Source: Escherichia phage T4. Taken from it: a stretch of DNA of 64,000 bases. The translations under genes were made by a program, and so were the position numbers. Of the stretch, positions 31,439 through 44,961 are shown one piece after another; positions within the stretch are counted from its first letter, which is position 1, and each line of letters begins with the position of its first letter. The notes under the pieces are model-generated. The model saw nothing but the letters and a program-made list of their open reading frames with translations, was not told the DNA's origin and searched no databases. The stretch lies in sequence record OL964735.1; one strand, given 5' to 3'.

Positions 31439-31771
31439 TTATTTTACTACTTTCCAATGCTGCATGTCAAGTTTACCAACTTTTTTCATCTTCTCAATTA
31501 AGCGTTCTGCACGTTGGCGAGCTGTAACATAATGCCATTCGCCTAATTCATTTTGTTCAATTTTTCCAACGATTACTGTATTCAATTCATAAATCCAACC
31601 AGTAAAGAAATTATGAACTTGAATTGTAAAGGTGAAATCTGTTCCCATACCTTCTGTTGTTTCTACTTCAATAATATCACCTTCAACTGCCATTAAGAAC
31701 CACATAGTTTCATCATATTTACCATTGAAGCATTTAGTTTTAACTGCAGCGTTCAGATTAATCGTTTTCAT
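31439..31771 (-). CDS. hypothetical protein (30.x region)
   Basis: 110-aa ORF. Confidence 0.6.
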   Translation of the reverse strand: MKTINLNAAVKTKCFNGKYDETMWFLMAVEGDIIEVETTEGMGTDFTFTIQVHNFFTGWIYELNTVIVGKIEQNELGEWHYVTARQRAERLIEKMKKVGKLDMQHWKVVK

Positions 31772-31845
31772 TTTATTCTCCTTTGTTTGTGTAAGATAAT
31801 ACTATCACAAAGGAACTATACTGTAAACAACTTTGTGCAATCTTT

Positions 31846-31876
31846 GGAAAATAAAAAAGGACTCCCGAAGGAGTCC
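31846..31876 (-). terminator. intrinsic terminator downstream of small basic ORF
   Basis: minus strand GGACTCC-TTCG-GGAGTCC hairpin followed by TTTTTTATTTTCC. Confidence 0.65.
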
Positions 31877-31881
31877 TCAAC

Positions 31882-32058
31882 TTATGCTTTCTGCTTACCA
31901 AAACGAGAAGCATCATCTCGAAGAACCGCACGTGCTCGGCGCATGATCTTCTCAACAGTTTGATTGATACGAGAGTTCGACCCACGCTTGTAGCCAGCGC
32001 GTTTAGAATCACCAACTTTCTTTTCAACTGCTTTCTTTGCTTTAGCTTGTTTTGCCAT
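31882..32058 (-). CDS. hypothetical small basic protein (58 aa, 30.9-like position)
   Basis: track ORF starts at non-ATG 32100; first in-frame ATG at 32058 gives 58 aa rich in K/R. Confidence 0.5.
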   Translation of the reverse strand: MAKQAKAKKAVEKKVGDSKRAGYKRGSNSRINQTVEKIMRRARAVLRDDASRFGKQKA

Positions 32059-32302
32059 TATAAATTCTCTTTTAAATGAAAATGCAGGACTTATTGGCAT
32101 TGCCTGCGCAAGCCCTCAAGGGGAACATAGGTTTTTGGATATTTAACGACCAGGATAACCATAAACCCGTCATCATTCACATTCAAGAGGTACACCGTAA
32201 AACTGTCGGGGTCTTAAAACTATAATGATTCGCAAATCATTAATCAGACAGTTCGACGGCTCCTCGATTTAGCTCACACTAAGGCAGTGAATCTCCAATA
32301 AA

Positions 32303-32551
32303 TTACTTCAGTGTTACCACAAAGTGACGAACTGCTTTTCGTGCAGCAGAAGCCAGAGGCTTAGCATATTTAAGTTCATCTTTTTCCTGAAGCTCAGCAG
32401 CTAATGCAGTTTGAGCAGGATTCAGATGTTTGAAATAACGCAGGATTTCAAGAGCTTCGGCTTCAACATCAATAGATGCGCCATAGTTTTCGTGACCATT
32501 ATTCCATGCGTTTCGTTGCAGTTCAAGAGCGTGTTGTAATTGTTTAATCAT
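32303..32551 (-). CDS. rIII: rIII lysis-inhibition accessory protein
   Basis: 82-aa ORF. Confidence 0.9.
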   Translation of the reverse strand: MIKQLQHALELQRNAWNNGHENYGASIDVEAEALEILRYFKHLNPAQTALAAELQEKDELKYAKPLASAARKAVRHFVVTLK

Positions 32552-32690
32552 TTAAAAATTCTCGTTAGAGATTAAAACTCGGTAGTCACGTTCTTCTGAA
32601 TTTCATCTTCTTTCGACAGATCTCTCAGTTGTAGACTACCACATAGAATTGTTCGGTTAACTTATTATTCCGACACCCAATTCATATTAT

Positions 32691-32698
32691 TATTTATA
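32691..32698 (-). promoter_or_regulatory. late promoter TATAAATA upstream of rIII
   Basis: minus strand exact motif adjacent to gene 31 stop; about 140-nt leader to rIII. Confidence 0.55.
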
Positions 32699-33034
32699 TC
32701 ACTTATAAAGACACGGAATAGCTTTATAGTGACAGGTAACGAATTTTTGTTTAATTTCTTTTGGCTGCTTAAGACCCAGAGCTACAAAAGGATGCGGAAC
32801 ATTTCGAATTTGACCAACTGGAAGAGAAGTCAAATCACCAACTTCGCAGAAACCTTCAGGAACATCAGGACCGACAGAGTGAACTACACACAGTTCAGGA
32901 ACTTCACCTTGAACACGTTTACCGATAATAAGTCCTGATTCTGTAACTTCTTCATCACCGGCTTGTGCAGGTTCAGAAACTAAAATAACATATTCACCGA
33001 CAGCACGAATTGGTAGCTGTTGTACTTCAGACAT
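32699..33034 (-). CDS. 31: head assembly co-chaperonin (T4 gp31, GroES-like)
   Basis: 111-aa ORF. Confidence 0.93.
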
Positions 33035-44412: not shown

Positions 44413-44641
44413 ATTGTTTTTCCGTTAAAACAGTAATATCGTAGTAACAGTCAGAAGAAGTTTTAACTGTGGAAATTTTATTATCAAAATACTCACGAGT
44501 CATTTTATGAGTATAGTATTTTTTACCATAAATGGTAATAGGCTGTTCTGGTCCTGGAACTTCTAACTCGCTTGGGTTAGGAAGTGTAAAAAGAACTACA
44601 CCAGAAGTATCTTTAAATCGTAAAATCATATATCCTCGCAA
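44366..44641 (-). CDS. hypothetical protein (nrdA.2 position)
   Basis: 91-aa ORF. Confidence 0.6.
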
Positions 44642-44649
44642 TAATAAAA

Positions 44650-44961
44650 TTACACCGCCATCTTTCCTTTAATAGGAGGGTGTGATACATAGTTGTTAAG
44701 AACGAAATCTTTAGGCCTAAGTTTAAGAACATATTTTAATTGTTCTTTAGTAGAAAGATATCGGAATTTATAAGGTAGACCACTTATTACCAGCTCACAA
44801 AGCTCTTTAGGTTCACGCCTCAAAATTTCTTTACATTGTTCTACGTGATTCATATAGATATGAGTATTACCACCAGAAAATATCAAATCCCCTGGAATAA
44901 GATTACACATCTTAGCTACAATATGAACTAACGTAGCATATGACGCAATATTAAACGGTAG
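44650..44961 (-). CDS. td: thymidylate synthase, exon 2
   Basis: exon starts at Leu codon after intron terminal G (44962); junction VDVFLG|LPFNIASYA. Confidence 0.93.

Follow-up and report, generated by a model that had tools for sequence, protein, structure and literature searches.

Why should phage T4 keep 244 bp without an annotated gene between rIII and 30.9, when neighbouring spacers span 41–147 bp? In the stretch of T4 DNA analysed here (64,000 nucleotides of OL964735.1, hereafter the window), this locally largest spacer occupies 32059–32302 on the minus strand, bounded by the rIII stop codon (32303–32305) and the 30.9 start codon (32056–32058), both on the minus strand. Over the 801 bp compared, the sequence shows 100% identity to phage T4. 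The spacer corresponds to positions 130,541–130,784 of NC_000866, whose feature table carries no annotation across it. The original prediction had drawn the limits of this gap exactly, and its description of the largest non-coding stretch is true within the neighbourhood. It had offered three candidates for the content of the spacer: a terminator for rIII, a processing site or a small structured RNA. Our results point to the last of these, in the form of a modular array that reads, in rIII sense, as module A, unit I and modules D, E and F; a processing site may also be present but is a candidate only. Comparison among relatives establishes that the predicted folds are non-coding, highly conserved and confined to one strand, and that their modular spread covers four families of virulent enterobacterial phages. 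The same comparisons demonstrate that the modules, as modelled, are selected for pairing and horizontally exchanged among such phages.

The setting of the spacer bears on whether it is transcribed. Upstream lie the essential co-chaperonin gene, gp31 (32699–33034, minus strand), and the rIII coding sequence (32303–32551, minus strand). Downstream is 30.9 (31882–32058, minus strand), which encodes a 58-aa basic protein assigned to phrog_1427 ('unknown function') and whose translation start region (32056–32073, minus strand) reads AAAAGAGAAUUUAUA-AUG. A strong intrinsic terminator follows 30.9 at 31857–31878 (minus strand; a 9-bp stem with 5 G–C pairs, then UUUUAUUUUC), and this is likely where rIII–30.9 transcripts end. 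Within the spacer itself, a promoter scan found no sigma-70-type promoter and a terminator scan called no terminator. Because early, middle and late promoters all serve rIII (PMC9409239), RNA from the spacer would be made throughout infection; with no promoter or strong terminator in between, this supports transcription of the spacer, presumably as an intercistronic part of 31–rIII–30.9 RNA. As the spacer has no sigma-70-type promoter, 30.9 would be reached by read-through from the 31 and rIII promoters.

Several sequence elements in the spacer resemble regulatory sites. A late-promoter-like TATAAATT on the plus strand (32059–32066), with one mismatch to the T4 consensus TATAAATA, would direct transcription antisense through the spacer; Mosigvirus does not conserve it, and it shares sequence with the 30.9 start region, so that it is probably fortuitous. 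We also rejected a MotA middle promoter composed of GCTT in module E and AATAAG in the loop of module F, as the −10 element lacks the essential A2 and T6 and the position of E relative to F shifts between genera. A RegB site at UUGGAGAUU was set aside because its GGAG becomes GGUG in other genera.

Unit I, an 88-nt rod of four helices, P1 to P4 (32181–32268, minus strand), is strongly supported by comparative evidence as a conserved structured RNA. P1 (GAGG/CCUC plus two outer pairs) leads through a conserved AG/UGUA internal loop to P2 (CCGU/ACGG), which is followed by a conserved UCGAA/UUUUA segment, P3 (CUGUC/GACAG), a large and conserved asymmetric loop (UGAU/UAGUUUUAAGACCCC) and, at the tip, an 8-bp P4. 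The alignment takes in four phage families, with 19 distinct sequences; pairs form in 97.8% of its cells, and both sides have changed in 13 of the 25 pairs; not one of 500 shuffles matched these values, and slid partners paired in 24–64%. RNAalifold recovered the same helices without guidance, and the T4 sequence, folded singly, arrives at this structure too, with −26.5 kcal/mol (z = −3.5). G·U combinations outnumber C·A by 23:3, which marks the rIII-sense strand as the functional one, and in each of the four families unit I points the same way as the genes or tRNAs beside it. Searched with a covariance model of unit I, the 64-kb window yields one copy, which scores 116 bits; a second match, at 44587–44670 on the minus strand (13 bits, E = 0.7), is almost certainly noise. 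A K-turn in the AG/UGUA loop was considered and rejected by inspection, as the bulged strand lacks the required NNN-GA.

P4 (32223–32242, minus strand; UUAAUGAUU-UGCG-AAUCAUUA) is the 8-bp hairpin with which the original prediction began. The inverted repeat it reported, TAATGATT-CGCA-AATCATTA, proves to be an exact match, and the minus-strand T-run said to follow is there (UAUAGUUUU). Taken alone, this hairpin could be a product of chance: perfect 8-bp hairpins whose loops measure 3–8 nt number 29 in the window, against about 12 in Markov simulations, and the isolated, A/U-rich stem folds at −4.7 kcal/mol (z = −1.25). Its reality follows from conservation and covariation in relatives, in which every cell of P4 is paired and four of the eight pairs show compensatory changes. 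The suggestion of a small structured RNA is therefore strongly supported by covariation, but the structure is far larger, at 88 nt, than the hairpin that prompted it. The tip formed by P4 seems to be dispensable and the least essential part of unit I, since 44-nt variants in three related loci (L033, L072 and L073) lack both P3 and P4 and keep P1, P2 and the internal loops.

Downstream of unit I, module D (32126–32177, minus strand) matches the description of an H-type pseudoknot, as modelled from aligned relatives, with both helices covarying and with an S2 of only 4 bp in T4. In the model, S1 pairs 32166–32171 with 32148–32154, and S2 pairs 32157–32160 (GGUU) with 32130–32133 (AACC), such that the hairpin loop pairs with a strand 3' of a conserved A-rich linker, CGUUAAAUAUCCAAAA. 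The registers were parsed by a custom script in 26 sequences because MAFFT misaligned a variable A-run. Across these sequences S1 pairing stands at 90%, against 70% in shuffles (0 of 1,000 as good), with swaps between AU, UA and GC at 3–4 positions; S2 is built as 7–9 bp from unrelated sequences in four lineages (L018, L020, L022, L023 and L026). The count of double changes in D is not above that of shuffles. The module also behaves as a clean 60-nt indel, present in phage A5-4 and absent from W70, and a comparison of these two revealed neither terminal inverted repeats nor target-site duplications around it. We take its layout, in which a hairpin and an A-rich linker are followed by a 3' strand that enters the loop, to recall the pistol ribozyme and the preQ1-I riboswitch. 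Unlike pistol, module D has no equivalents of P2 and P3 in fixed position, and its linker is 15–16 nt long. Identity with pistol, preQ1-I or HDV-like RNAs was rejected, as a 281-nt region gave no Rfam match to any of them at E ≤ 10.

Thermodynamic support in T4 is weak for the remaining modules of the array, A, E and F. Module A (32269–32296, minus strand; GGAGAUUCACUGCCUUAGUGUGAGCUAA), upstream of unit I, is a small hairpin with a conserved loop, weakly supported as a structure and with a weak thermodynamic signal. It is kept in Tequatrovirus, in Mosigvirus/Dhakavirus and in Klebsiella-type T4-like phages, with a stem that varies among CAC/GUG, CGC/GCG and UGC/GCA; in a comparison with the T4 spacer, Mosigvirus had it missing or different. 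Module E (32109–32126, minus strand), the mini-hairpin GUUCCCCUUGAGGGCUUG, occurs in the spacers of nearly all genera at variable positions, with stems of CCC/GGG, CCUC/GAGG or CCU/AGG. Module F (32074–32107, minus strand) contains a weak terminator-like hairpin, GCAGG/CCUGC at 32084–32107, with a 14-nt loop, CAAUGCCAAUAAGU, and a tail of AUUUUCAUUU. Its stem of 5–7 bp covaries between CAGG/CCUG and CUGG/CCAG and its loop is conserved. With the 5-bp stem and tail of T4, module F is no more stable than shuffles and falls below the criteria of the terminator scan, whereas relatives have stronger hairpins and U-tracts at the same position. It is the sole terminator-like feature of the spacer, and a weak one. 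A pairing of the F loop (CCAAUAAG) with UUAUUGG at the start of the spacer, seen in the minimum-free-energy fold, was discarded, as it is not conserved in Mosigvirus.

Two sister modules were encountered in related spacers. Module G, an RNA of about 135 nt with multiple branches, lies between unit I and D in more than 400 Straboviridae records and is absent from the T4 window; RNAalifold assigns it 44 pairs, and compensatory changes occur in 17. It is found at about nt 100–235 of the L013 spacer and also in L014, L016, L020, L022, L024–L032, L038 and L075, has no Rfam match, and is either unannotated or covered by spurious 'hypothetical proteins'. Module X is an insert of about 50 nt with the hairpin GUCAGAAAAAGGUUAUCUGUC, present in L004 (1749 plus about 125–175), L006, L009–L019 and L021. 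The stem reads CAGA/UCUG, but in L009 and L021 it has become CAGC/GCUG; the L021 copy is nested within a terminator hairpin.

How far the array is conserved was assessed with rIII–30.9 spacers taken from several GenBank phages and 40 related viral contigs. Nearly every T4-like genus has such a spacer, 120–422 nt long and built as a mosaic of recurring modules, which differ from genus to genus in their order and in how far they lie from the 30.9 start. Between T4 and the Mosig- and Dhakaviruses, identity reaches 92–98% in unit I, 98% in D and 92–94% in E–F, against 80% in gp31, 85% in rIII and 77% in 30.9. Such identity of modules between genera could in part reflect recent recombination rather than selection.

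The modules also extend beyond T4-like phages. The original prediction had proposed conservation across relatives as a check, and what emerged is recurrence both among T4-like genera and in three other phage families; on present alignments, two modules, unit I and D, are also found in three unrelated families. In phi92-like phages (Justusliebigvirus), the whole T4 array is present at 96–99% identity in all 17 records inspected, phi92 among them (arall, L001, 2495–2848; L042; L043; phi92, FR775895, 53316–53957). Here it lies between tRNA-Gly and tRNA-Gln, on the strand of the tRNAs, in a circularly permuted form flanked by a 13-nt direct repeat, TTTATTGGAGATT, and with the 30.9 start codon fused to the last 27 codons of rIII. 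This permutation and the repeat suggest integration of a circular intermediate. The resulting 28-codon ORF, made of the 30.9 ATG and the rIII C terminus, is annotated as a 'lysis inhibition accessory protein' (gp113). An origin of module A as part of tRNA-Gln was dismissed, as the 8-nt identity with the 5' end of the arall tRNA-Gln stops after TGGAGATT. Four records named as 'Campylobacter phage' (A150, A145, C3 and A110a), with genomes of 146 kb, are 95.8% identical to phi92-like coliphages over the whole 641-bp query.

In the Vequintavirinae W70 and A5-4, unit I retains 83% identity, including a compensatory change of GAGG/CCUC to GGGG/CCCC, and immediately precedes a tRNA-like sequence, tRNA-Met and a clear homologue of T4 rnaD; no terminator follows unit I in either phage. 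The tRNA-like sequence is aberrant, with an intact acceptor and T-arm and an odd middle, and is not called by ARAGORN. This sequence and the rnaD homologue after tRNA-Met belong to a region at about 2495–2215 on the minus strand of L044 and at 1200–1482 of L069. The third family is represented by Kuravirus, in which a stop codon precedes unit I and the terminator ahead of terL follows it; P4 is fully compensated in these copies. Its carriers are two phages, 172-1 and XT18, together with five contigs from metagenomes and a 'MAG' contig that was mis-binned. The last of these (L128, JAEZZQ010000010.1, 'Bacillota bacterium') is a 3.3-kb Kuravirus fragment with unit I and terL, a binning contaminant. 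It was also the sole match of the covariance model in GTDB genomes, and 5,426 E. coli genomes contained no homologue of the array. We rejected host mimicry or a prophage origin, given the lack of an E. coli match and given that 53 GTDB pattern matches are chance occurrences except for the mis-binned Kuravirus contig. Two further pattern matches were dropped because they fall within coding sequence.

Do these modules belong to a class already described? Our literature search found no description of an RNA array between rIII and 30.9; an article by Driukas and Nivinskas (Biologija, 2003), which reportedly deals with the expression of rIII and 30.9, lay beyond its scope. Among the 4,227 families of Rfam 15, searched with permissive thresholds and short inputs, none matched any module at its gathering threshold. 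The best match in the spacer, DUF2815 RNA in the E–F region, scores 14.5 bits against a threshold of 41.2 bits (E = 5), and was rejected because neither L033 nor L018 reproduces it. Atu_C8 (31 bits) matched only the terminator after 30.9. A group I intron remnant found no backing in Rfam, and ARAGORN detected no tRNA or tmRNA at 31700–32700.

The classic small stable RNAs of T4 are its tRNAs together with RNAC and RNAD. The latter two are species 1 and 2 of the T4 tRNA cluster, with a role given as unknown in a 2010 review of post-transcriptional control, which also states that no riboswitch or trans-acting small RNA had been characterised in T4 (PMC3014915). Like RNAC and RNAD, the array is phage-encoded, non-coding and structured, and it shares their setting in other phages: in Vequintavirinae unit I, with or without D, clusters with tRNA-Met and the rnaD homologue, and in phi92-like phages the array stands between two tRNA genes. 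Unlike them, the T4 array lies between protein genes, outside the tRNA cluster, has no tRNA-like 3' end or CCA, and is a putative stable RNA predicted from sequence. Homology with rnaC or rnaD was rejected, as no similarity is visible by eye and the unit I covariance model returned nothing on the T4 tRNA region (L045).

A second point of comparison is the PeSL cassette, which combines a terminator stem-loop with an early promoter, occurs in many copies per genome and shuffles T4-type genomes (PMC4122927). With PeSLs the modules share their nature as short intergenic stem-loops exchanged between phages in hyperplastic T4-like regions, and the permuted phi92-like copy would fit integration of a circular intermediate. 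The array differs in being single-copy, in its RNA-level covariation and pseudoknot, and in having no early promoter. The arrangement expected of a PeSL, a repeated stem-loop at a fixed distance from TTTACW-N17-TAYWAT, does not occur in the spacer, which has no promoter-like site. A classic PeSL-type unit does adjoin 30.9, in the 30.9–30.8 spacer (31799–31878, minus strand), where the terminator GAGGACUCC-UUCG-GGAGUCCUU and its U-tract are followed by an early-type promoter, TTTACA-17-TAGTAT, with TG. In being conserved, intergenic and covariation-supported, the modules resemble the motifs of a catalogue of phage csRNAs (10,006 entries; PMC10690425); our comparison covered Rfam 15, whose motifs they do not match.

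Given these findings, which readings of the spacer are still plausible? The simplest, that the hairpin and T-run are the intrinsic terminator of rIII and the remaining spacer is inert, we judge to be essentially excluded, and with it the corresponding suggestion in the original prediction. It has in its favour that UAUAGUUUU follows the hairpin on the coding strand and that one GenBank record carries a predicted terminator in an enlarged version of the spacer. Yet an intrinsic terminator should have a G+C-rich stem with an immediate U-tract, and here one pair of eight is G–C and four U's come after a 4-nt spacer; the isolated fold has the weak energy given above, and the terminator scan does not call it. 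Nor is it a free-standing conserved hairpin, as it is nested in P3 and enclosed by covarying P1–P3, and it is deleted, with its flanks kept, in the three relatives that carry the 44-nt variants. A 'spacer' more conserved than its flanking genes also argues against inert sequence. We give still less credence, to the point of essential exclusion, to the reading that the spacer encodes one or more small proteins, such as a 49-aa ORF on the plus strand (32076–32225) or 34-aa ORFs on the minus strand. Mechanical ORFs of 34–49 aa do exist on both strands, and several GenBank records call 'hypothetical proteins' here, but these ORFs are frameshifted or truncated in four relatives (L007, L004, L009 and L015) and absent from L033, and modules of the T4 group differ from one another by 1–2-nt indels. 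The single-base indels and frameshifts exclude a protein gene. Moreover, the phi92-like copy of the 49-aa ORF differs by three substitutions, each of them non-synonymous, this ORF has no Shine–Dalgarno sequence, and Pfam and PHROG searches with the spacer ORFs yielded no match. The term 'ORF-free' in the original prediction thus stands only in the sense that the gap holds no real gene; the conserved coding frame in relatives that had been named as the observation to count against it is absent.

Two further readings accept the modules as real and differ over what is selected. That they are selfish or recombinogenic elements acting at the level of DNA, akin to MITEs or PeSLs, with palindromes that serve mobility and an identity that reflects recent horizontal spread, would account for the discrete indels (D between A5-4 and W70, modules G and X, and the unit I tip in L033 and L072) and is in keeping with the shuffling attributed to PeSL cassettes; the permuted phi92-like copy and its direct repeat are what a circular intermediate would be expected to leave. 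We nonetheless find a purely DNA-level mobile element improbable in view of the pseudoknot, the asymmetry between strands and the occurrence as one copy. Compensatory changes preserve pairing and not sequence, the strong excess of G·U relative to C·A indicates a single transcribed strand, and pseudoknot pairing would be meaningless in duplex DNA; D has no terminal inverted repeats or target-site duplications, each genome has one copy, and the early promoter, a defining part of a PeSL, is missing. A serious rival, which we rate as possible though rather unlikely, is a generic cis element: a barrier to 3'–5' or 5'–3' decay that stabilizes rIII/30.9 mRNA, an attenuator or antiterminator governing how much transcription continues into 30.9, terL or tRNAs, or a leader for 30.9 translation. 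The array always runs along the direction of transcription, follows a stop codon directly in T4, Mosigvirus and Kuravirus, and leaves 30.9 without a promoter in the spacer; most T4-like genera place a hairpin and U-tract before the 30.9 ribosome-binding site, and in Kuravirus unit I is followed at once by an intrinsic terminator, which transcription has to get past to reach terL. The settings in T4 and Kuravirus, as a 3' untranslated region or 5' leader, are equally compatible with such a role. It is harder to reconcile with downstream genes that are wholly different (30.9, tRNA-Gln, a tRNA-like sequence with tRNA-Met, and terL), with the lack of a terminator after unit I in W70 and A5-4, and with a module order and distance to the 30.9 start that differ by genus. 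Simple decay barriers, furthermore, need neither invariant internal loops nor a pseudoknot with a conserved linker.

On balance we think it probable that the spacer is an autonomous, selectively maintained array of RNAs of the stable-RNA type, carried in 31–rIII–30.9 transcripts. Autonomous RNAs recognised by a factor are the most likely explanation because the modules have unrelated neighbours, occur in two tRNA/stable-RNA clusters and contain invariant unpaired nucleotides. They would act as RNA, independently of rIII and 30.9, with the invariant nucleotides of the internal loops and linker most likely serving as recognition surfaces for a protein or RNA partner. By analogy with RNAC and RNAD, the modules are most likely released or stabilized as discrete stable RNAs, and a gene-specific regulation of 30.9 appears less likely than such a role. 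An abundant additional stable RNA, however, might perhaps have been noticed already in T4, and tRNA clusters may be no more than places that readily tolerate insertions. More tentatively, unit I and modules D, G and X could be members of a hitherto unrecognised repertoire of horizontally exchanged, trans-acting phage RNAs, or 'accessory stable RNAs', an extension of the autonomous-array reading that we hold to be possible but doubtful. Were this true, accessory RNAs might bind or decoy a factor of host or phage, for instance RNA polymerase, an RNase, ribosomal protein S1 or a defence nuclease that targets tRNAs, a new ribozyme or ligand-binding fold might even be present among these RNAs, and the rIII–30.9 spacer would be a dedicated RNA-gene locus of the Tevenvirinae.

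The analysis resolves, in models at the level of base pairs, at least two RNA folds that lack annotation in T4, the best-studied virulent phage. These predicted folds outdo the neighbouring essential co-chaperonin gene in conservation, and three other phage families appear to have captured them independently, twice beside tRNAs. They make it testable whether virulent phages carry functional stable RNAs other than tRNAs, and what such RNAs would bind; coordinates are defined and natural variants with and without each module exist. The array also corrects the many GenBank records that place spurious 'hypothetical proteins' across this non-coding spacer. In a separate annotation problem, many T4-like records mislabel either 30.9 or the spacer as '1,4-alpha-glucan branching enzyme, GH-13-type'.
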